A stretch of 64,000 nucleotides of DNA from Escherichia phage fKMPT1. The DNA lies in the sequence record PP620640; one strand, given 5' to 3'. Shown here in pieces: positions 27,649 through 60,329 of this stretch. The position numbers and the translations under genes are program-made. The notes beneath the pieces are model-generated. The model saw nothing but the letters and a program-made list of their open reading frames with translations, searched no databases and was not told where the DNA came from. The stretch's first letter is position 1, and each line of letters opens with the position of its first letter.

Positions 27649-28749
27649 TTACTCATAATCCCTAATAACTAGCCCAACAGGAAACTGTAAAGACCCCTTA
27701 CGAGTCATCTTCTGGAACTGAACCGTTAAAGGTTTCCCGATAAACTCTTCAGGATGCTCAGCAAGATACTGTTTCTTCTCATGAGTAGTCTTCCATGAGA
27801 CATCTACAAAGACGTTAGGAAGCGTCTCTACAACGAACTTGCCATGACCACGTTTATCGGTCTTTACACCAGTTACTTTAAACTCTTCAGTGTGCATCTT
27901 CTTGTGCTTAATCAAGAAGTATGAACGGTGACAACACTCATAGAAGGAGTCTTCAGAAATTGAACGGTACATTGCACCTTCAAACTTAGCTTCAACCCAC
28001 TTATCATGGGCTTCATCAAACTCTTCCCAAGAGTTAACACGACGAGATTTAACAGGGACAACTTTACAGCCATCTCTAAAGTCATTCAATGGTGAAGTCT
28101 CAATAATATCTCTACGCTCAGGCCACGTCTTAGTACTGTCACAGATATCATACCAGTAGAACTGGAGTAGATGTCGGTCTGGATTGTCAGCATTCTTAAT
28201 CATAGACACAATGTCTTCTAAGTCCCAACCATGAGCATAAATCTCGCCATCAAAGTCTTTAACTTGCGGATGTAATTTAAGCAACAAAAGTAAATCTGGG
28301 ATTAGTTCTGCTGGAACGTTGTAAACAGTATTCTCACGAGAATAAGCCGTGAAGCTAACTGAATCAGCATCTCTTGAAATTCTACAACGAACACCATCAA
28401 GTTTTGGTTGAGCATCAGCAGGGAATATCAAATACTTTGCATGACTAACCTTTGCAGCATCATGCGCAAGCTGTACACCTACCTTCTCAGTATTCTGTGC
28501 AGACTCTTTTGTGTAAGCATAACCTTTGCGGTCAACCTGCTTTTTATACTTAGCAGCAACTTCAAAGAGAGCTTGCTGTTCAGCGTTACGCTCATTCTTT
28601 TTACCGATGTTTTTAGGTTCTGCTGTATACTCTTCAAACATCATCTTGCCATTCTCTTTACCGTAGGTTGTAATAACTTTGTCGCCTACAGCAACACATG
28701 ACCAGACGTTGAAGGAGCCATCTTTATTTTGTTTGTATAGAATTGTCAT
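27649..28749 (-). CDS. ATP-dependent DNA ligase
   Basis: 366 aa; adenylation motif I KLDGVRC (KxDG); size as T7-type ligases. Confidence 0.8.
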   Translation of the reverse strand: MTILYKQNKDGSFNVWSCVAVGDKVITTYGKENGKMMFEEYTAEPKNIGKKNERNAEQQALFEVAAKYKKQVDRKGYAYTKESAQNTEKVGVQLAHDAAKVSHAKYLIFPADAQPKLDGVRCRISRDADSVSFTAYSRENTVYNVPAELIPDLLLLLKLHPQVKDFDGEIYAHGWDLEDIVSMIKNADNPDRHLLQFYWYDICDSTKTWPERRDIIETSPLNDFRDGCKVVPVKSRRVNSWEEFDEAHDKWVEAKFEGAMYRSISEDSFYECCHRSYFLIKHKKMHTEEFKVTGVKTDKRGHGKFVVETLPNVFVDVSWKTTHEKKQYLAEHPEEFIGKPLTVQFQKMTRKGSLQFPVGLVIRDYE

Positions 28750-33104: not shown

Positions 33105-33361
33105 TTTTACTCCCTCTAAAATCATTAACCACATACATTACTGCAAAAAATTATAAAAAGCAAGTTGACAATGTACTTGACAAGGTGTTAATCTTTGCGA
33201 AGTGGGTTTTTACTTAAAAGGTTACTTAACAGTTTAACTATACAGATACTTTAAAACTCTTAAAAGATTATTTAATAGTTTTTAAAAAGCTTTAAAGTAT
33301 AACGTATAGAATACGTTAAGATAAAAGATTAAAACTTAATAGTTACTTAAAAGAGGCTTAC

Positions 33362-35612: not shown

Positions 35613-37590
35613 AGGTCGTAAATTGAAAGAGGCTGGTCAGTTTATTGGTCATTGTGCGTGTCCACGTTGTGGTTCATCAGATGCTGGTTCAATCTATCAT
35701 CATGACGATGATTCTTATTCGATGACTTGCTTTAGTTGTAACAAAGGTTTCCCAGAGTGGGATTTTGATAAAGGACAAATCGTGAGCACTTATTCTACTG
35801 GTTCAGATAATAAAAACCGTACTTTCCGTGGAATGGATTTAGACGATGTAAAAGAAAACCTTGAAGCAATGGACTTGAAAGACAGGAAGATTCCTGCAAA
35901 AGTTCTTGAACGCTTAGGTATCAAGGTTGACATTGACAGTGATGGTGAAATTGATGCACATTTCTATCCGACTTACAAACGTAATGAAGATGGCAAGCTA
36001 GAACATGTTGGCTACCGTGTTCGTCACCGTTACCCAGAAGACCATCCAAAAGAACACCTACGTGGTAAACTAAAAGACTTTTCAGGTGGTGTTGGAGACA
36101 TTAAAGGCGAACTGGCAATGTTCGGTTCATGGATTGCTCCAGAAGGTGGCAATCGTCTATTCATCTGGGAAGGTGAGATGGAATGTGCTACAGCAATCTA
36201 CATGACTTCTCTGGCAATTAAAGATAAGTCTCGTCGTAAGAATTACTGTCACGTATCTGTTCCATCAGGTGCAAACATTAAGTCTATCAAAGACAACTAT
36301 CAGTATATCACATCATTTGATGAGATTTACTTGTGCTTTGATAACGATGAAGCAGGTGCTAAAGCTACCAAAGAGGCTGCTGGTATCCTGCCTATTGAGA
36401 AGGTTCGTTTATTCCAGTATCCAGAAGGTGTAAAAGACCTTAATGAATGGTGGACAAAGTTCTATAAAGAGAAAGACACAGTTCTGGAAGGATTTAAGCA
36501 GCGTATCTACAACGCACCTCGTTATTGCCCTGCTGGTATCAAGAACTTTGCAGATGGTTTTGAGGCAATGAAGAATCGTGGTCAGATTCCATTGATTCCT
36601 TTCCCAGAGTCTTTCGGGGATTTGAACAGACTGACTTATGGTGGTTACGGTTTAGGTGAGATTACAACTCTGGCAGCACCATCTTCAGTAGGTAAATCAG
36701 CGTACACCCGTGAAATGATTTACACTGCTTGGAAGGAAACCGATTATAATATTGGTGTAATTCCTGTAGAAGATACCTACGAAGAGTTGATGGAAATGCT
36801 CTGTGCAATTCACCTGAGCAAGCAGATTTCTGAGATTCCTTATGACGAACGTGATTGGGATGAATTGAAGGAAGCACACGCAGAGCTATCTAAAGGTCGT
36901 CGTATCCATATCGTTGACCATCAAGGGGCAATTGACCAAGATAACCTGCTGGAGTTTGTTGACTATCTTGTTAATAGTTTAGACTGTAAGATTATTATTC
37001 TTGACCCTATTACGTTGGCTCTGTCACGTTCTGATACGGATGAAGAGGAAGTATTGTCTGAACTATTGCGTCGTTGCAAACGCTACCAGTATGCGCAGGT
37101 AAACGTGTGTCACGTTCGTAAGAGTGCAGGTGGTCAGAAAGCCAACTCTGAAGGTGGAGATATCTCTGAAGAGGACATTAAAGGTTCTGGTGCGTATTTC
37201 CAGATTTCTATGAACAACATTCTGTTAATGCGTAACAAGGTTGACCCAGACCCTGTTAAGAAAAACTTGACAAAAATCAAGTTAACTAAGTGTCGTCGTC
37301 ATGGTAAGTCAACAGGTATTGCTGGTCACACTTGGTACAATCCAGACACAGGACGTCTTATCAAAGCTTCTGGATGTGGTGTTGATATTGATGGTGCAGC
37401 AGAAAATATTCGTCAACAGTTTGGTATTGGTGAAGCTGAAGACCATTACGATGACTCTTTACCTCATTATGAGGATGAAGTGTTTGACCGTGAGACTGGT
37501 GAAGTCTATACTGAAGAACAGCGTCAAAGCTCAACGATTCCACCTGTATTAAGTGAGGATGCAGATGACTGCCCGTTTGAAACTGAGTGA
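35599..37590 (+). CDS. Bifunctional DNA primase/helicase (T7 gp4-like)
   Basis: 663 aa; N-terminal Cys4 zinc ribbon CPRCGSSD...CFSCN, TOPRIM-like acidic segment (FDNDEAG), C-terminal DnaB-type helicase with Walker A AAPSSVGKS and Walker B IIILDP. Confidence 0.8.
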   Translation: MLMSKGRKLKEAGQFIGHCACPRCGSSDAGSIYHHDDDSYSMTCFSCNKGFPEWDFDKGQIVSTYSTGSDNKNRTFRGMDLDDVKENLEAMDLKDRKIPAKVLERLGIKVDIDSDGEIDAHFYPTYKRNEDGKLEHVGYRVRHRYPEDHPKEHLRGKLKDFSGGVGDIKGELAMFGSWIAPEGGNRLFIWEGEMECATAIYMTSLAIKDKSRRKNYCHVSVPSGANIKSIKDNYQYITSFDEIYLCFDNDEAGAKATKEAAGILPIEKVRLFQYPEGVKDLNEWWTKFYKEKDTVLEGFKQRIYNAPRYCPAGIKNFADGFEAMKNRGQIPLIPFPESFGDLNRLTYGGYGLGEITTLAAPSSVGKSAYTREMIYTAWKETDYNIGVIPVEDTYEELMEMLCAIHLSKQISEIPYDERDWDELKEAHAELSKGRRIHIVDHQGAIDQDNLLEFVDYLVNSLDCKIIILDPITLALSRSDTDEEEVLSELLRRCKRYQYAQVNVCHVRKSAGGQKANSEGGDISEEDIKGSGAYFQISMNNILLMRNKVDPDPVKKNLTKIKLTKCRRHGKSTGIAGHTWYNPDTGRLIKASGCGVDIDGAAENIRQQFGIGEAEDHYDDSLPHYEDEVFDRETGEVYTEEQRQSSTIPPVLSEDADDCPFETE

Positions 37591-37657
37591 TAGTTATAAA
37601 AGAGAGGGGTTTATACCCTTCTTTGAAGAAAAAAGTTTAAATAAATTTCAGGAAGAG

Positions 37658-37689
37658 TGTTTGACAAAGGTTGATAGGTTCTATAGAAT
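37658..37689 (+). promoter_or_regulatory. Promoter, TGTTTGACA-N17-TAGAAT
   Basis: -35 TTGACA 37661-37666 with upstream TGT, 17-bp spacer, -10 TAGAAT 37684-37689. Confidence 0.55.
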
Positions 37690-37842
37690 GCTCTACATGA
37701 AATGTGATGGAGGAGTTGAGGTTGAACAAAAGTCCCATCACAGTATAATAACAGTCACTATTACTATACCTCAACATAATATTGGTTGGCTGTTTATAAT
37801 TAAAGAAAATGTGTTTGAATATCAAGTATATCGGAGAATATC

Positions 37843-37992
37843 ATGAAACACTCTAAAGCATTTGAAAAAGTTTTTGGGGATTCCTTAAAAGCCACTGCTG
37901 GTAAACCAGCAAAATACTATGAAGAGAAGCGTGTAAGAACTGGAAAAACTGCACGTAAAGCAGCTTCTAAAGATAAGCACAACTTCCAGTAA
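37843..37992 (+). CDS. Small basic protein (49 aa), candidate
   Basis: ATG at 37843 preceded by GGAG; encodes MKHSKAFEKVFGDSLKATAGKPAKYYEEKRVRTGKTARKAASKDKHNFQ; below the ORF-track length cut-off. Confidence 0.3.
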   Translation: MKHSKAFEKVFGDSLKATAGKPAKYYEEKRVRTGKTARKAASKDKHNFQ

Positions 37993-37996
37993 TTAA

Positions 37997-38028
37997 TGTT
38001 TGACAATAGAGTATCAACAAATTAGAAT
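37997..38028 (+). promoter_or_regulatory. Promoter, TGTTTGACA-N17-TAGAAT, upstream of SSB gene
   Basis: -35 TTGACA 38000-38005, 17-bp spacer, -10 TAGAAT 38023-38028. Confidence 0.55.
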
Positions 38029-38064
38029 TGGTACTCTTCATAAATTGAGATAGAGGTTTAAATA

Positions 38065-38922
38065 ATGTCTAAAGTTGTTAAAATGAAAGCTCCGGTAGAG
38101 AAGTACAATGGTACTGAACGTCAAACTCTGCGTTACCTGCTGAAAGATGTTTGGTTTTATTACCTGAACACTTCACCACGTCCGGGAAAAGGTAAATCCA
38201 TTGATAAGAAATTCCCAGGCAAAGACTGTAACTACAGTGTTTCAATTCTGGCAGAAGATGGTAATAAACTATTTAAAGAGTTTACTAAGTCTAAGAAAAA
38301 CCCAGAAGGTTGGGATAAAGTTACTACTGAAGCAGTTGATGCAGATGACTTCGAAGAGAAGTTTGGTTGCAAACCACCATTTGAAGCAGACACTTACTAC
38401 ATCTTGAAAGTAAGTCGTGCAGCAGCTTATAAAGACGGTGCTGTGTGGACAGCTAAACAGTCATTCCCTGTAATGCTGATTGAAGAAGTAAATGGTAAGC
38501 GTGTAGCTGTTAAACAGCCGATGAAGAAAATCAAAGCTCAAGCATCTGACAAACATGAAGATGACAAGAACTATGATGTAATTCATCCAGATATTGCAGT
38601 TGGTAACGGTTCTTTTGGTAGTGTGATTCTGTCTACTCACTTCTACACTTTTGAGAACAATGTTCTGACAAAACCTATTCAGGAACAGTTTATCATTGAC
38701 ACTCTTGTACCTTACACTGGTGGTAACGGTGCTAACGGTGAACCTGAACTGGATGAAGACGAACTGGCTATGCTTGGTCTTGATGGTGTTGAAGATAACG
38801 GTGAAATCACTGAAGAAGACGCAAAAGACCACAAACCTTCTAATGATTCTGATGATGGTGACGATGAAGACTTGCCAGACCCAGATGACGAAGAAGATGA
38901 AGACTTCGATACAGAAGACTAA
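38065..38922 (+). CDS. Single-stranded DNA-binding protein (T7 gp2.5-like) candidate
   Basis: 285 aa with strongly acidic C-terminal tail DDGDDEDLPDPDDEEDEDFDTED; located in replication module after primase-helicase. Confidence 0.5.
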   Translation: MSKVVKMKAPVEKYNGTERQTLRYLLKDVWFYYLNTSPRPGKGKSIDKKFPGKDCNYSVSILAEDGNKLFKEFTKSKKNPEGWDKVTTEAVDADDFEEKFGCKPPFEADTYYILKVSRAAAYKDGAVWTAKQSFPVMLIEEVNGKRVAVKQPMKKIKAQASDKHEDDKNYDVIHPDIAVGNGSFGSVILSTHFYTFENNVLTKPIQEQFIIDTLVPYTGGNGANGEPELDEDELAMLGLDGVEDNGEITEEDAKDHKPSNDSDDGDDEDLPDPDDEEDEDFDTED

Positions 38923-38940
38923 TCTTTAAAAGTTACTTTA

Positions 38941-38968
38941 AAGCCCTGTACTTAGTATGGGGCTTTTT
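38941..38968 (+). terminator. Rho-independent terminator
   Basis: aagccct-loop-ggggctt hairpin followed by TTTTT. Confidence 0.55.
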
Positions 38969-38984
38969 CATATGGAGAGCCACA

Positions 38985-48446: not shown

Positions 48447-48454
48447 AACTTGAC

Positions 48455-48494
48455 AAGGTGGTGTGGGTCTTGGTAGGCTTACATCACCTTTTTT
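48455..48494 (+). terminator. Rho-independent terminator
   Basis: aaggtggtgt / acatcacctt 10-bp stem (one G-U) with 16-nt loop followed by TTTTTT. Confidence 0.55.
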
Positions 48495-48508
48495 ATTGGA
48501 GTTGCATT

Positions 48509-54347: not shown

Positions 54348-56129
54348 ATGACTAAATCACTTTATGCAGTACCAGCAGGTTTAAACGCAGACGCTTACAA
54401 ATCTGGTCACATCTACCAGTATCCTAGTGCAATAGAGTACTTGATGTTCAACCTGACACCACGTAGTGATAAATGGTTTAACAGCCCCTTAGCAATTGAC
54501 GGTGTAGTGGCTTTTGGTATTCAACGTTTTGTTAAAGATTACCTGATAGACCACTGGAACGCCACCTTCTTCGAACGTGACAAAAAAGAAGCAATTGACG
54601 AAATCTTAGAAGTCATGAACGGTGTTCTGGGTAAAGATGCTATTGGTCGAGAACATTGGGAAGCACTCCACGACTTAGGTTATCTACCAGTTGAAGTATA
54701 CGCTGTAGAAGAAGGCACAGTTGTCCCTATGCGTGTACCAATGATTGTCTTCCAGAACACTGTTTCAGGTTTCCATTGGGTAGCGGGGTATCTGGAAGAT
54801 GCTTTCTCTGCTGAGATTTGGAAGGCTTGTACCATTGCAACTATTGCATTGCACTACAAACGTATCTGTAAGAAGTGGTCTGACCTTACTTGTGACAATG
54901 ACTTGCATTTACCTTATCAGTGCCATGACTTTGCTATGCGTGGTATGTCTGGCTTTACTGATGACGCATTTAATGCTGTAGGCCACTTAACCAGCTTTAA
55001 AGGGACTGATAGCTTCCCTGCTGTATACACGGCTAAACGCATCTATGGACAGCCCTACCCAATCTCTGATATTGGTAGTTCTGTACCAGCCACTGAACAC
55101 TCTGTAATGTGTGCAAACATTGCTTGGGAAGGTGGTAATGAGTTGATTGAAGAAGAAAGACGCTTTAAAGGTGAGTTACAAACCTTCCGTCGTTTCTTAA
55201 CAGAAACTTACCCAACTGGTATTGCAAGTGTTGTTTCAGACACTTATAATTTCTGGAAAACTGTATCAGAAATCTTACCAGCACTTCGCAAAGAGATTAT
55301 GGAACGTGACGGAAAACTGGTAATTCGTCCTGACTCTGGCGACCCTGTACATATTGTCACAGGTTATAAAGCAATCCACTTAGAGTGCGCTAAAAAAGCT
55401 TATTACGAACACCTAAGCAAGCTGGAAGCCAGCGACACAAAGTTGAATGCTGTTCTGAACATGAATCTTGAAGACATTCACTATATTATGGCTGGGTGGT
55501 TACGTACAGAAGGCTATGAAATGGTGGTTGACAGAGAAGACTTTGAAGTAGCTGATACAGTGCTTCTGAAAGATGCCTACATCAACGGCTCTGCAAACGT
55601 TGTAACACGTCCTGTAGCAGAGATTGATGGAGCTATTAAGACCCTGTATAACATCTTTGGAGGGACTATCAACGCTAAAGGTTTTAAAGTACTGGATGAG
55701 CACATTGGACTTATTTATGGTGACTCTATCACGTTGGAACGTGCAAACGAAATCCTTAAGCGTTTGTATGAAATGGGTTTTGCAAGCTCTAACGTAGTGT
55801 TTGGTGTAGGTTCTTACACTTACCAGTACATGACTCGTGACACCTTTGCATTTGCTGTTAAAGCAACTCTGGCAAGCATTGGTGGCAAAGAGATTATGCT
55901 TGCAAAAGACCCTAAAACAGATAGTGGTGTTAAGAAGTCTGCTTTTGGTGGTGTAGCACCTATGTGGGATGGTGATAAGCTGAAAGCTGTAGATGGCTAT
56001 GGGTTCCAGAGCTTTGCAGATGTGCTTGAACATCCAGCTTGTGCTTTACGTTTAGTCTTTAGTGACTCTGAGCAGTTTGGTTACACAAATCTTGGTGATA
56101 TTCGAAATAATATTGACAAGCAGCTTTAA
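54348..56129 (+). CDS. Nicotinamide phosphoribosyltransferase family protein (NadV/NAMPT-like or Namat-like)
   Basis: 593 aa; N-terminal LNADAYKSGHIYQYPS matches NAMPT LATDSYKVTHYKQYP; immediately downstream of Prs-like gene. Confidence 0.7.
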   Translation: MTKSLYAVPAGLNADAYKSGHIYQYPSAIEYLMFNLTPRSDKWFNSPLAIDGVVAFGIQRFVKDYLIDHWNATFFERDKKEAIDEILEVMNGVLGKDAIGREHWEALHDLGYLPVEVYAVEEGTVVPMRVPMIVFQNTVSGFHWVAGYLEDAFSAEIWKACTIATIALHYKRICKKWSDLTCDNDLHLPYQCHDFAMRGMSGFTDDAFNAVGHLTSFKGTDSFPAVYTAKRIYGQPYPISDIGSSVPATEHSVMCANIAWEGGNELIEEERRFKGELQTFRRFLTETYPTGIASVVSDTYNFWKTVSEILPALRKEIMERDGKLVIRPDSGDPVHIVTGYKAIHLECAKKAYYEHLSKLEASDTKLNAVLNMNLEDIHYIMAGWLRTEGYEMVVDREDFEVADTVLLKDAYINGSANVVTRPVAEIDGAIKTLYNIFGGTINAKGFKVLDEHIGLIYGDSITLERANEILKRLYEMGFASSNVVFGVGSYTYQYMTRDTFAFAVKATLASIGGKEIMLAKDPKTDSGVKKSAFGGVAPMWDGDKLKAVDGYGFQSFADVLEHPACALRLVFSDSEQFGYTNLGDIRNNIDKQL

Positions 56130-56142
56130 AAGTATATGATAA

Positions 56143-56165
56143 GAGGCTCCTACGGGAGCCTTTTT
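56143..56165 (+). terminator. Rho-independent terminator
   Basis: ggctcc-tacg-ggagcc hairpin followed by TTTTT. Confidence 0.7.
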
Positions 56166-56704: not shown

Positions 56705-59071
56705 ATGCGCATGGTAAACGACCACGCAGAAGTGATTAAGAGTTCAACTTCTTTAGAGACGTCGCAAGCACAGATTACAATGACACCTGAAATGTTCAGC
56801 CTTTTGAGTTCTGGTGTATATACCTTTAAAGAAAGGGCAGTGATTCGTGAACTGTCATGTAACGCAGTAGATGCTCAGAAAGAAGCTGGAAAAGAGAATA
56901 TCCCGTTCCATGTGCATTTACCTACTCGTTTTGAGCCTTACTTTGAAGTTCGTGATTTTGGAACTGGATTAACTCATGATAAAGTTATGAGTTTGTACCT
57001 AAACTATGGGGCTTCTACGAAGAATGACTCTAATGACTACATTGGTGCAATGGGTATCGGCTCAAAATCACCATTTGCAATTGCTCAGTCATTCACAGTG
57101 TCTAGCTATGTTGACGGTGTTGTTAATAAGTACTCTGTTTATCTTGAGAATGGTATCCCTCAAGTAACTAAACTGACCACTAACCCAACAAAAGAACCTA
57201 ATGGTTTAGCTGTACGTGTGGCAGTTGCTGACCACCGTATTTCAAAGTTCTTTGAAGAGGCTGGTAATGTATACTCATACTTTGCTGTAAAACCAGAAAG
57301 TAACATCGAGTATGACGATGTACTAGCAGATATGAATGTCATTGCCCGTGAAGAAGGTGTCTATGATGCCATGATTCATAAGCAAAGCTGGCGTTCTAGT
57401 GGTAACAGGACAGAGTTTAATGTGGTGATGGGTAATATCGCCTATCCAGTTAACATGGAAGCATTACTTGGAGATGATTTCTTCAAAGTCTTGCCAGAAT
57501 TTTTCCGTAGGAGCGTAGACCTTGTAAACATCTACATGCCTATTGGTTCAGTCGCTATTGCAGCTTCTCGTGAAGCATTGCAGATGAATGATACGACAAA
57601 AAATGTTATCATTGAGGCTACTAAAAAGATAACTGAAGCAATTACAAAGGATGTTATCAAGAAAGTTAATAGCCAACCTACACTCATGGATGCTGCACAG
57701 GCTTATGCTGAGTTACGTTTGAACTCACGAGAGATGTTCAATGCTGTGTGTCCAAAGCTAGAGTGGGGTGGTGTTAAGCTTGATTCTCTGGAAGAAGAAT
57801 TACTAAACATTCGTCGTGGAATTATCTACGCAGAAGACGGCTCAGTCATTTACGAACGTGACGGCAAAGGCAATATTAAGGTTGATAGGAACGGGAACAA
57901 TATCCCTAAAGTAGATTATCTTTATGACCCAGTTGCTTACGTCAAGTTCAACTCTTTAGAGAGTAAGATTCGTGCAACATCGCTTTCCTACACTCAAGAG
58001 GCAAGTATGTTCAATATCTTTGGCGCAATGCGTAAAAGCCAAATTGAACAGTTTTTGTTTGTTATAAATGACCGTCGCAATAAAAATGGTACTGAGAAGA
58101 CTGTAGGACGCAATCAAATTTTGCGTGGTGCATGTCGAGACTATGCCAATGAGTCAAGTCTGTTTCACAGATACAATGGTATTGTCTTTGTATTCTCTAC
58201 AGAGAAAGAGCTAGACGACTTAATCAATTTGCACAAACTTGATAAAAGCTTGTTAAAGATTGTGAAGATGTCTGATAAGGAACACCATTATCAGCGTAAA
58301 GAAGCTGTAAGAGGTGTTGTAAAACTTTGGAAAGCTGTTCCAGCAGAAGGTGTAGCTTCCTATAAAGAGGTTTCAGAGGACTTTGATACAATTGAAGAAC
58401 CTCAGCTTTACATTAAGGCAGTCGGCGACACAGTTGACGGTGAATGTTTTTGCTCATCTCCAGAAGATGTAGCTAAGTCAGTTGCAAATGTCATTGGGAA
58501 GACAGTCTATGTTTTCCGAAAAGCAAATTGGAAAAAGATACCAGAAGACTGGATTGAAGTAGATGAGAAGCTCTTGAACGACAGCTTAACTGATGTTCAC
58601 TGGATTAACCATAATAGGTATATGACACGCATCTATATGAATGGTGTCCTTGACCTCACAAGCAGTTGGATTATTGCCAGAAACTTTACGTTCAATAACA
58701 GGAAGATTTCTCGTGGCTATTGTTATTCACGGGATACAAACAAAACTATCTTCCTAGAAGGCAATGAGGATGCTGTTGAGGCAATGTTTGGTAAAATCCA
58801 ATACGTTGCTGCACCGTTTGCATACACTTACACTATTAGTAGACTGCAAACTTTGAAAGAATGCCTTGATAACGATACAAAGCTGTACAAGAAAATCAAG
58901 AAAGCTGGTGACCGTATGGTCATTAAGGTGACAAACTACCTTTCAAAAAGGAAACAAGAAAACTTCTTGCTTTCTCATTTAGATTGGGATAAAGTGTCAC
59001 CCATCGAAGTGAGTAAGTTCTTAGGCTTTGATGTGAAGTGTGTTCCAGAAGGGACTACAATTTACGATTAA
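56705..59071 (+). CDS. rIIA: rIIA-like protein with GHKL (HATPase_c) ATPase domain
   Basis: 788 aa; Bergerat-fold boxes: N-box ELSCNAVDA, G1 DFGTGL, G2 GAMGIGSKSPFA; size as T4 rIIA. Confidence 0.6.
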   Translation: MRMVNDHAEVIKSSTSLETSQAQITMTPEMFSLLSSGVYTFKERAVIRELSCNAVDAQKEAGKENIPFHVHLPTRFEPYFEVRDFGTGLTHDKVMSLYLNYGASTKNDSNDYIGAMGIGSKSPFAIAQSFTVSSYVDGVVNKYSVYLENGIPQVTKLTTNPTKEPNGLAVRVAVADHRISKFFEEAGNVYSYFAVKPESNIEYDDVLADMNVIAREEGVYDAMIHKQSWRSSGNRTEFNVVMGNIAYPVNMEALLGDDFFKVLPEFFRRSVDLVNIYMPIGSVAIAASREALQMNDTTKNVIIEATKKITEAITKDVIKKVNSQPTLMDAAQAYAELRLNSREMFNAVCPKLEWGGVKLDSLEEELLNIRRGIIYAEDGSVIYERDGKGNIKVDRNGNNIPKVDYLYDPVAYVKFNSLESKIRATSLSYTQEASMFNIFGAMRKSQIEQFLFVINDRRNKNGTEKTVGRNQILRGACRDYANESSLFHRYNGIVFVFSTEKELDDLINLHKLDKSLLKIVKMSDKEHHYQRKEAVRGVVKLWKAVPAEGVASYKEVSEDFDTIEEPQLYIKAVGDTVDGECFCSSPEDVAKSVANVIGKTVYVFRKANWKKIPEDWIEVDEKLLNDSLTDVHWINHNRYMTRIYMNGVLDLTSSWIIARNFTFNNRKISRGYCYSRDTNKTIFLEGNEDAVEAMFGKIQYVAAPFAYTYTISRLQTLKECLDNDTKLYKKIKKAGDRMVIKVTNYLSKRKQENFLLSHLDWDKVSPIEVSKFLGFDVKCVPEGTTIYD

Positions 59072-59073
59072 AG

Positions 59074-59106
59074 TGTTTGACAAGGGGCTTCAAAGCCCCT
59101 TAGAAT
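59074..59106 (+). promoter_or_regulatory. Promoter, TGTTTGACA-N18-TAGAAT with GC hairpin in spacer
   Basis: -35 TTGACA 59077-59082; spacer aggggcttcaaagcccct (palindromic); -10 TAGAAT 59101-59106. Confidence 0.5.
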
Positions 59107-59150
59107 AGTCTTACAAAATGATTTATTAACTAACAAGAGAGAGTAATAAG

Positions 59151-60260
59151 ATGACTACTAAAACTAAAGCACAGATTGACGCAGAAATTTACGAACTGGT
59201 TAAAGAAGGTAAGCTGACTAAAACAGCTATTGCACAGAAGTTCAATACTTCAACCCGTTCAGTTGGTCGTGCTGTAGAGCGTCATGAAGCAACCTTAAAA
59301 GGTAAGAAGAAGACGACTTCTAATCCAGCTAAGAAGACCCTAAAGCAAGTTGCTAAGTCAGTTAAAAAGAAAGCTGGAAAACCAGTTGAAAAGGTTGTTA
59401 AAAAGGCTGTACAAAAAGCTCCGGTAAATAAACTACACGAAGCTATGCAGAAAGATGACAAGATTGAGTACATGATTACTGGTGACTCTGTAATTATGAC
59501 TTACGGTTCAGAATCTGAAATTGTTGAGTCTACTCATCCGAACTATCAAGAGATTGTAGTTCATGTTGTGAAAGGTGAGTTCAAGAAAGCCTTTGAACTG
59601 ATGAACATTCGTAAGTCTATCGAAAACTTCACTCAGGGTGCTATCACAATCAAAGGTGACAAGTTATTCTACGGTGCTGTTGAGATGCGTTCTACTCTGG
59701 TTGACCGTATTCTTCACATGATGAAGACTGGTGATAAAGGTTTTGAACGACTTGTAATGTTCTTCGAAAAACTGATGGAAAACCCATCTAAAGACTCTGT
59801 AGAACAACTTTGGGGATTTGTATCTCACCTTGATGTTGAGATTGATGAAGAAGGCTTCATCATTGGTTGGAAGAAAGTCTCTACTCGTGAAGGTAAGCTG
59901 GTTGACTCCCACACCTACAAAGTACCTAATGATTTGGGTAACATTGTAGAAATGCCACGTTGGATGGTTGATAACAACCGTAACGTAACTTGTTCTCAAG
60001 GTCTTCATGTTGGTGCTTGGGATTATGTTCGTTACTTCTCAGGTGATACCATCCTGAAGGTTCGTGTCCATCCACGAGATGTTGTATCTGTTCCAACTGA
60101 TTACAACGATATGAAGATGCGTTCATCCCGTTATGAAGTTGCAGCAATCGTTGATAATCAGCGTAAAGTACTGAAAGCGTGGGATGGTAAGACTGAGGCT
60201 TTGCATGTCATCGTTGGCACTGCTGGTGAACTCATCTCCCAACGTAAACGTGAAATCTAA
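59151..60260 (+). CDS. rIIB-like protein (candidate, by synteny)
   Basis: 369-aa ORF directly after rIIA-like gene; N-terminal HTH-like segment and Lys-rich linker; no diagnostic motif recognised. Confidence 0.35.
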   Translation: MTTKTKAQIDAEIYELVKEGKLTKTAIAQKFNTSTRSVGRAVERHEATLKGKKKTTSNPAKKTLKQVAKSVKKKAGKPVEKVVKKAVQKAPVNKLHEAMQKDDKIEYMITGDSVIMTYGSESEIVESTHPNYQEIVVHVVKGEFKKAFELMNIRKSIENFTQGAITIKGDKLFYGAVEMRSTLVDRILHMMKTGDKGFERLVMFFEKLMENPSKDSVEQLWGFVSHLDVEIDEEGFIIGWKKVSTREGKLVDSHTYKVPNDLGNIVEMPRWMVDNNRNVTCSQGLHVGAWDYVRYFSGDTILKVRVHPRDVVSVPTDYNDMKMRSSRYEVAAIVDNQRKVLKAWDGKTEALHVIVGTAGELISQRKREI

Positions 60261-60276
60261 TAAGTAATTTCTTAAA

Positions 60277-60300
60277 AGGCTGCTTCGGCGGCCTTTTTTA
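60277..60300 (+). terminator. Rho-independent terminator (UUCG loop)
   Basis: aggctgc-ttcg-gcggcct hairpin followed by TTTTTTATTT. Confidence 0.65.
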
Positions 60301-60301
60301 T

Positions 60302-60329
60302 TTGTATTTTGTGCAGAGTGCTGTATAAT
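60302..60329 (+). promoter_or_regulatory. Sigma70-like promoter candidate
   Basis: TTGTAT -35-like at 60302-60307, TATAAT at 60324-60329 preceded by TG; RBS AGGAG before ATG 60361. Confidence 0.4.

Follow-up and report, generated by a model that had tools for sequence, protein, structure and literature searches.

Escherichia coli promoters read by RNA polymerase with sigma70 follow the canonical plan TTGACA - 17 bp - TATAAT, and sigma70 makes its strongest contacts with the -35 hexamer and with positions 1, 2 and 6 of the -10 hexamer. In the 2010 genome paper on phage Felix O1, no phage RNA polymerase or specificity factor was recognisable, five putative promoters other than those treated here were proposed, and the restart of transcription after the many terminators was left unresolved, with read-through and 'downstream secondary promoters' given as possibilities (PMC3185647); for the related phage vB_EcoM_AYO145A, 16 host-recognised promoters were announced (PMC4472883). 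Here, we describe three near-consensus promoter sequences (sites 1, 2 and 3; coordinates in Table 1) in a 64,000-nucleotide stretch of DNA from Escherichia phage fKMPT1 (sequence record PP620640; the whole stretch is called the window) that, judged from sequence and conservation, are probably promoters for unmodified host RNA polymerase with sigma70, secondary or internal to the replication block.

Two of the three sites have orthologues that already carry promoter annotations in sister phages. In the AYO145A record (NC_028825.1), the features at 2298-2327 and 70624-70652, orthologous to site 3 and site 2 respectively, are labelled as promoters 'similar to TTGACA(N15-18)TATAAT with 1 bp mismatch', and the record of vB_EcoM_ASO1A (MZ726791.1) likewise marks the site 3 orthologue (2298-2327). 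Table S1 for UAB_Phi87 lists TTGACA / CCTTAGAAT at 27,984, which is site 3 (PMC4837284). Between these annotations and sites 2 and 3, the positions are orthologous, the boxes are the same and so is the reading. Gene names used below (ASP4_) are from the record of Salmonella phage fBSPA4 (OR711204.1, Felixounavirus, 87,179 bp), which is collinear with the window and holds coding-sequence and tRNA features, with regulatory features absent. Compared with fBSPA4 positions 1-64000, the window has four single-base differences at zero offset, and a 2.5-kb query around the region described here matches at 100% identity. The region is common to about 260 Felix O1-like phages, comprising Felixounavirus and its sister genera.

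All three sites lie on the plus strand and match TGTTTGACA-N17-TAGAAT (sites 1 and 2) or TGTTTGACA-N18-TAGAAT (site 3) exactly where the initial annotation had placed the motif, and no match to it was found in 100 dinucleotide-preserving shuffles. The looser pattern TTGACA-N16-18-TANAAT also finds, within the window, sites 1-3 alone, where 0.35 would be expected, and none in the remaining 23 kb, so that a scan of the whole 87,179-bp genome, which the initial annotation had proposed, returns sites 1-3 and nothing else. They are the highest scorers in consensus promoter scans as well, and when aligned with one another are similar in their -35 and -10 boxes only. Intergenic DNA makes up 11.7% of the genome when coding sequences and tRNAs are counted as genic. 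Of the seven sites with at most one mismatch from the full consensus, four lie wholly between genes and a fifth does so in part (binomial P = 0.005); of those at two mismatches, 12/48 are intergenic (P = 0.008). Near-consensus sites are thus enriched between genes, and the lack of such enrichment that the initial annotation had named as contrary evidence was not seen. A wider class built on TAGAAT was considered and rejected, since the 53 copies of this hexamer, listed with their best -35 boxes, yielded zero additional members; those on the minus strand at 65974 and 67629 arise only because a conserved ribosome-site and start region of paralogous small genes contains TAGAAT in its reverse complement.

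Each site has a perfect -35 hexamer (TTGACA, 6/6), a -10 hexamer (TAGAAT) that agrees with TATAAT at 5/6 positions, including the critical T1, A2 and T6, and a spacer of 17 bp (sites 1 and 2) or 18 bp (site 3). Conservation was assessed in 28 loci for sites 1 and 2 and 30 loci for site 3 from viral contigs, together with annotated GenBank relatives. At site 2, the -35 is invariant (6/6) and so are -10 positions 1, 2, 5 and 6 among 12 distinct intergenic sequences from three genera; the -10 variants (TAGAAT, TAAGAT, TAATAT, TAACAT) differ in the middle positions only; elsewhere, spacer and leader have drifted apart among relatives and carry insertions and deletions. Of about 26 distinct relatives at site 3, a single one departs from TTGACA (TTGACT), and the -10 reads TAGAAT or TAAAAT. 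The site 3 spacer is 17 bp in Suspvirus and Mooglevirus as opposed to 18 bp here; because this change shifts the alignment register, column-wise scoring under-reports the -35, and conservation at this site was read by direct listing of the sequences. At both sites the hexamers are more constrained than their surroundings, and the retention of TTGACA and of the key -10 positions while the flanks drift is the pattern expected of a sigma70 promoter. As promoters of the host sigma70 type, which the initial annotation had suspected, sites 2 and 3 are well supported by these comparisons.

Table 1. Promoter sites, palindromes, genes and terminators discussed in the text (window positions unless stated otherwise).
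Feature	Position	Strand	Remarks
Site 1	37658-37689	+	-35 37661-37666; -10 37684-37689; predicted start A at about 37695-37697
ASP4_00050	37565-37846	+	93-amino-acid (aa) gene containing site 1; PHROG 4982 (function unknown)
10-bp palindrome TTCTATAGAA	37679-37688	+	Overlaps the site 1 -10
ASP4_00051	37843-37992	+	49-aa basic protein; PHROG 4424; own GGAG ribosome-binding site
Site 2	37997-38028	+	-35 38000-38005; -10 38023-38028; predicted start at about 38033-38035
Inverted repeat AGAGTATCAA-N10-TTGGTACTCT	38008-38037	+	10-bp arms (38008-38017 and 38028-38037) bracket the site 2 -10
ASP4_00052	38065-38922	+	Annotated as hypothetical; gene predicted to be served by site 2
Intrinsic terminator after ASP4_00052	38940-38970	+	Hairpin and T-run; sequence identical to Felix O1 't104' (PMC3185647)
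Site 3	59074-59106	+	-35 59077-59082; 18-nucleotide (nt) spacer; -10 59101-59106; predicted start A at 59113
GC-rich hairpin AAGGGGCTT-ca-AAGCCCCTT	59082-59101	+	Fills the site 3 spacer, 11 nt past the rIIA stop codon
rIIB	59151-60260	+	Gene predicted to be served by site 3
Intrinsic terminator after rIIB	60274-60303	+	Felix O1 't2'; found by terminator scan
A-rich + TGTTGACA site	27131	-	
A-rich + TGTTGACA site	27487	-	
A-rich + TGTTGACA site	33165	+	
A-rich + TGTTGACA sites beyond the window	68051, 69743, 79346, 79880, 81383, 81474, 82966		

Sites 2 and 3 each head a promoter-gene-terminator unit. Site 2 lies between ASP4_00051 and the 285-aa gene ASP4_00052, with which it is co-oriented, its -10 standing 36 nt from the ATG, and an AGAGG/GAGAG Shine-Dalgarno sequence is present at sites 2 and 3. 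By comparison of the fold of a structure model, the predicted product of ASP4_00052 is a T7 gp2.5-type single-stranded-DNA-binding protein (SSB) with a gp2.5-like OB fold; searches of Pfam and PDB with its sequence gave no match, so that the fold comparison alone was informative. The protein has an acidic C-terminal tail (...DDGDDEDLPDPDDEEDEDFDTED) in which F281 is invariant in 11 homologues. In T7 gp2.5 itself the tail phenylalanine is the last residue, which it is not in ASP4_00052. A gp2.5-like SSB is a protein required in large amounts. The unit at site 2 consists of this one gene and its terminator. Site 3 lies between rIIA, which ends at 59071, and rIIB, with which it is co-oriented, its -10 being 44 nt from the rIIB ATG. 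The AYO145A record annotates terminators at positions orthologous to both of those that close these units. In Felix O1, the reverse-transcription PCR (RT-PCR) signal is maximal at 10 min for rIIB and at 25 min for rIIA (PMC3185647 Table 3), and these differing maxima are consistent with separate control of the two genes.

The match to the motif and its significance, the conservation of the sites, their gene context and the SSB fold are shown by the analysis; initiation, timing and hairpin function at the three sites are what we infer, as follows. Sites 1-3 would act as secondary, internal promoters within the long rightward replication and nucleotide-metabolism block (33.4-64.7 kb), where they would re-start or boost the transcription of particular genes. 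Site 2 would drive the SSB gene and site 3 would drive rIIB independently of rIIA, each transcript being closed by a strong terminator, and site 1, 339 bp upstream of site 2, would most likely add transcripts for the 49-aa and SSB genes. The predicted starts fall downstream of the hairpins at sites 2 and 3 or inside them. RNA begun at these promoters would lack the hairpins, which would be contained only in RNA read in from upstream; there they probably mark the 3' terminus of the preceding message or shield it.

Site 1 differs in its setting. The initial annotation had the motif always in intergenic positions ahead of plus-strand genes, which holds for sites 2 and 3, both co-oriented with the next gene, and fails for site 1, which is inside ASP4_00050. 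This gene and the end of the primase/helicase gene share 26 nt. It matches PHROG 4982 end to end (E = 6e-49), and its open reading frame is retained, uninterrupted and equally long, in Suspvirus and Mooglevirus relatives, where the encoded sequences align in a protein-like pattern with amino-acid identity of about 40%; the PHROG match and the maintenance of the frame across genera argue that ASP4_00050 is a real gene and that site 1 is intragenic. TGT-TTG-ACA in site 1 encodes C32-L33-T34, the -10 covers Y40-R41-M42, and the first gene downstream is ASP4_00051, 153 nt away. Given the protein sequence and phage codon usage, the codons TTG, ACA, TAT and AGA would occur together with a probability of 0.0105, and a synonymous-codon shuffle of all genes gives 0.013 copies of TTGACA-N17/18-TAGAAT expected in sense coding sequence genome-wide, both of which make an accidental origin unlikely. 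The hexamers are invariant in 21 distinct Felixounavirus sequences. No promoter annotation of site 1 was found in the records or tables of related phages examined, because those promoter searches were limited to intergenic DNA; in the wV8 record, the terminator is the sole mark in this interval. On these grounds, site 1 is probably an internal promoter and is put forward as a candidate.

Several points weigh against reading all three sites as promoters. The literature searched yielded neither mapped transcription starts nor reporter or RNA-polymerase-binding data on any Felix O1-like phage, and the promoter annotations in relatives are all consensus matches themselves. The Felix O1 RT-PCR timing is end-point and coarse, and the hairpins at sites 2 and 3 are without U-tracts, so that termination there is an inference. 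At site 1, conservation is fully explainable by coding constraint, E-C-L-T being invariant at the protein level in ASP4_00050 homologues; 0/4 of the synonymous hexamer positions are variable against a gene background of 34%, a difference that at this low power is not significant (P = 0.18); and in other genera the site weakens to TTGACT/G-17-TAAAGT, the -35 change being the synonymous ACA->ACT.

Taken with the location of site 1 in a real gene, with the change TGT->TGC in other genera, which like ACA->ACT is synonymous as under coding constraint, and with the missing promoter mark in related phages, these observations favour the alternative that sites 2 and 3 are real promoters and site 1 is an unused by-product of the protein (ECLTK...FYRM) and of codon choice, silent or negligible in vivo, for example through transcription from upstream. 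We regard this alternative as possible but doubtful. It asks for a codon combination with a chance of about 1% where 0.013 perfect sense-coding sites are expected in the whole genome, and site 1 is identical over 10 + 6 bases to both intergenic sites; moreover, the other genera keep a usable TTGACT-17-TAAAGT with T1, A2 and T6. A near-consensus sequence is normally bound by sigma70 holoenzyme, which also counts against an idle site 1.

Two further elements were observed close to site 1. About 170 bp upstream of it, inside the end of the primase/helicase gene, stands TTGACC-17-TATACT (37484-37512, plus strand), which is P102 of Felix O1 and is weaker than site 1 (PMC3185647). Just after the primase/helicase stop codon and inside ASP4_00050, the hairpin AGAGAGGGG-ttta-TACCCTTCTT (37601-37624, plus strand; -13.8 kcal/mol) retains its stem and varies in its loop in other genera, and has no U-tract.

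Dyad symmetry overlies the core of every site. The 18-nt spacer of site 3 is the GC palindrome that the initial annotation had described (aggggcttcaaagcccct), and the A and T that flank it extend it to inverted arms of 9 nt (59082-59090 and 59093-59101). As RNA, the hairpin has a predicted energy of -13.2 kcal/mol alone, and the surrounding 66 nt have z = -3.96. Over three genera the stem is conserved and the loop is variable (CA, TG, GAAA, GCAA), with two sequences breaking one pair without compensation. The rIIA-rIIB junction of Erwinia phage vEam_W_25 (Kolesnikvirus) has a similar hairpin, GGGGCTG-gaaa-CAGCCC, with neither TTGACA nor TAGAAT and no sigma70-like boxes. The hairpin thus came before the promoter seen in Felixounavirus, Suspvirus and Mooglevirus, and has a role that does not depend on it; another distant relative has a different hairpin around TTGACA-17-TCTAAT. 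Like intrinsic terminators, the site 3 hairpin has a GC-rich stem of 8-9 bp and a short loop and is near a stop codon, but it differs from them in that no U-tract follows the stem (CCCCUUAGAAUAG; AGAAUAGUCUU). It went uncalled in the terminator scan, in which the true terminators at 56141 and 60274 were both picked up. The earlier suggestion of a terminator for rIIA is therefore borne out as to a stable, conserved hairpin, promoter-free in the Erwinia relative, and not as to a canonical terminator. Since it lies upstream of the predicted start, the hairpin would be present only in transcripts arriving from rIIA, of which, from its sequence features, it is probably a 3'-end hairpin or a weak terminator.

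The inverted repeat at site 2 (-9.1 kcal/mol), an analogous element that the initial annotation did not mention, is paired in 100% of cells in 11 distinct sequences. One of its pairs changes between A-U and G-C between clades, as a single event, and another is U.G in eight sequences and C-G in three; such a wobble pair favours RNA pairing over a DNA operator. Probably, the repeat forms a hairpin in RNA that reads through from upstream.

A different view of the palindromes, which the initial annotation had raised for the site 3 spacer, is that they are operators, DNA sites through which a phage or host regulator would switch the promoters during infection. In its favour are the symmetry over each core, the conservation of the site 2 and 3 arms across genera, including a change on both arms at site 2, and a putative transcriptional regulator encoded by the phage (ASP4_00034). 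The palindromes at sites 1, 2 and 3 are unrelated in sequence, so that one regulator cannot explain all three, and a common operator was rejected for this reason. In addition, the T.G position of site 2 in 8/11 sequences pairs in RNA and is a mismatch in a DNA dyad, and the Kolesnikvirus hairpin occupies the same junction without a promoter. An operator function is accordingly improbable.

A combined promoter and hairpin may also be considered. At 56113-56164 (plus strand), the end of nadV bears TTGACA-16-TATGAT, and a canonical terminator hairpin (56141-56164) comes directly after it, with the predicted start inside the 5' arm of the terminator; the promoter's orthologue is marked as such in AYO145A (86706-86731). 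That the hairpins over sites 2 and 3, with this promoter and terminator, form a deliberate 'stop-and-restart' module is a speculative proposal to which we give little weight. If true, the same 30-40 bp would end or process incoming RNA and launch a new, hairpin-free transcript, so that the dosage of single genes (SSB, rIIB) would be shielded from transcription further upstream; and as the rIIA hairpin is the older element, the promoter boxes would have arisen around an RNA structure that was already there.

The initial annotation had also taken the extended -35 to define a phage promoter class, in which case the nine-base word would mark a phage-specific 'middle' class read by modified polymerase or a phage-encoded factor. 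The identity of TGTTTGACAA at sites 1, 2 and 3, the position of all three in the replication and nucleotide-metabolism block, and the absence from sites 2 and 3 of the A-rich upstream tract of the genome's other TTGACA promoters agree with such a class. The three bases 5' of TTGACA, however, vary freely in close and distant relatives (TAT, TGC, AGT, AGC, GAT) while TTGACA stays fixed, and the nine-base word is thus a feature of this isolate and not of a class. The conserved positions are exactly the sigma70 contacts, and the phage RNA polymerase or specificity factor that might read such a class went unrecognised in Felix O1 (PMC3185647). A phage-specific class is very improbable. Finally, chance matches or copies of a short mobile or duplicated cassette, to which the exact repetition of 10 + 6 bases only might point, are effectively refuted by the shuffles, in which none is expected, by the lack of likeness outside the boxes, and by the conservation of each site in place across genera.

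Besides sites 1-3, TTGACA occurs in a larger set of sites in the genome that carry the word TGTTGACA and, upstream, an A-rich tract (aaaaa..ttttaaaaaagtTG); 7/9 copies of the word are intergenic. This set shares the -35 hexamer with sites 1-3, and its intergenic members are co-oriented with downstream genes or tRNAs. Its -10 boxes are weaker and varied, and it is found at transcription-unit heads, in the region of small genes and in that of the tRNAs; by contrast, sites 2 and 3 are without the tract, and sites 1-3 have the best -10 boxes and are inside the replication-gene block. Set beside these, and as far as their sequences indicate, sites 1-3 look like secondary promoters and not a separate recognition class.

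Other repeated elements were seen in the same survey. Three copies of a longer module (33165-33182, plus strand; genome 69743-69761 and 79346-79363) consist of the A-rich tract, TGTTGACA, 6-7 nt and a second cTTGACA, followed directly by AGGTG in two copies; two copies also have ACTTAAAAGGTT downstream. The modules, which may be the main early promoters, head rightward transcription units with tandem -35 boxes. Five copies of the word TTGACAAGG(T/G)G are present in the genome (29656 on the minus strand, 33177, 48450, 59077 and 79358), with AGG after TTGACA expected in about 1.2 of the 100 TTGACA copies by a rough hand estimate from base composition. Its copy at 48450 (48450-48500, plus strand) runs directly into the nrdD terminator hairpin. 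Beyond the window, about 1.7 kb between convergent gene blocks (genome 70779-72513) is without an annotated gene, and contains 'ttcgaTAGAATct' words at 70838 and 70932 and TTTACA-18-TACAAT at 70862.

The significance of sites 1-3 is modest: they are good candidates for the 'downstream secondary promoters' past terminators at two places in the replication block. For the engineering of Felix O1-like phages (Salmonella typing, detection and biocontrol), they offer what are likely strong host-read promoters in terminator-bounded cassettes, and the 'hypothetical' gene ASP4_00052 can be re-annotated as a phage gp2.5-type SSB on the fold comparison. The additions made here to the sister-phage annotations are small, namely an intragenic candidate promoter, the proposed SSB identity of the downstream gene, and the overlaps of hairpins with promoters, in which the hairpin is the older element. 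The general understanding of promoters is unchanged.

In phage T4, promoters dedicated to rIIB are situated where rIIA ends, and the placement of site 3 at the rIIA/rIIB boundary may be a parallel to this; those of T4 are of early and MotA-dependent middle types, in contrast to the plain sigma70 boxes and spacer hairpin of site 3. Compared with the canonical E. coli sigma70 promoter, sites 1-3 are alike in -35, spacer and -10; they differ in that the extended -10 TG is absent and that sites 2 and 3 are without an A-rich UP-like tract, and the conserved hairpins overlapping sites 2 and 3 are outside the canonical definition. Sites 1-3 thus belong to a familiar kind of element, of which they are unremarkable examples, and sister-phage annotation had in large part anticipated them.

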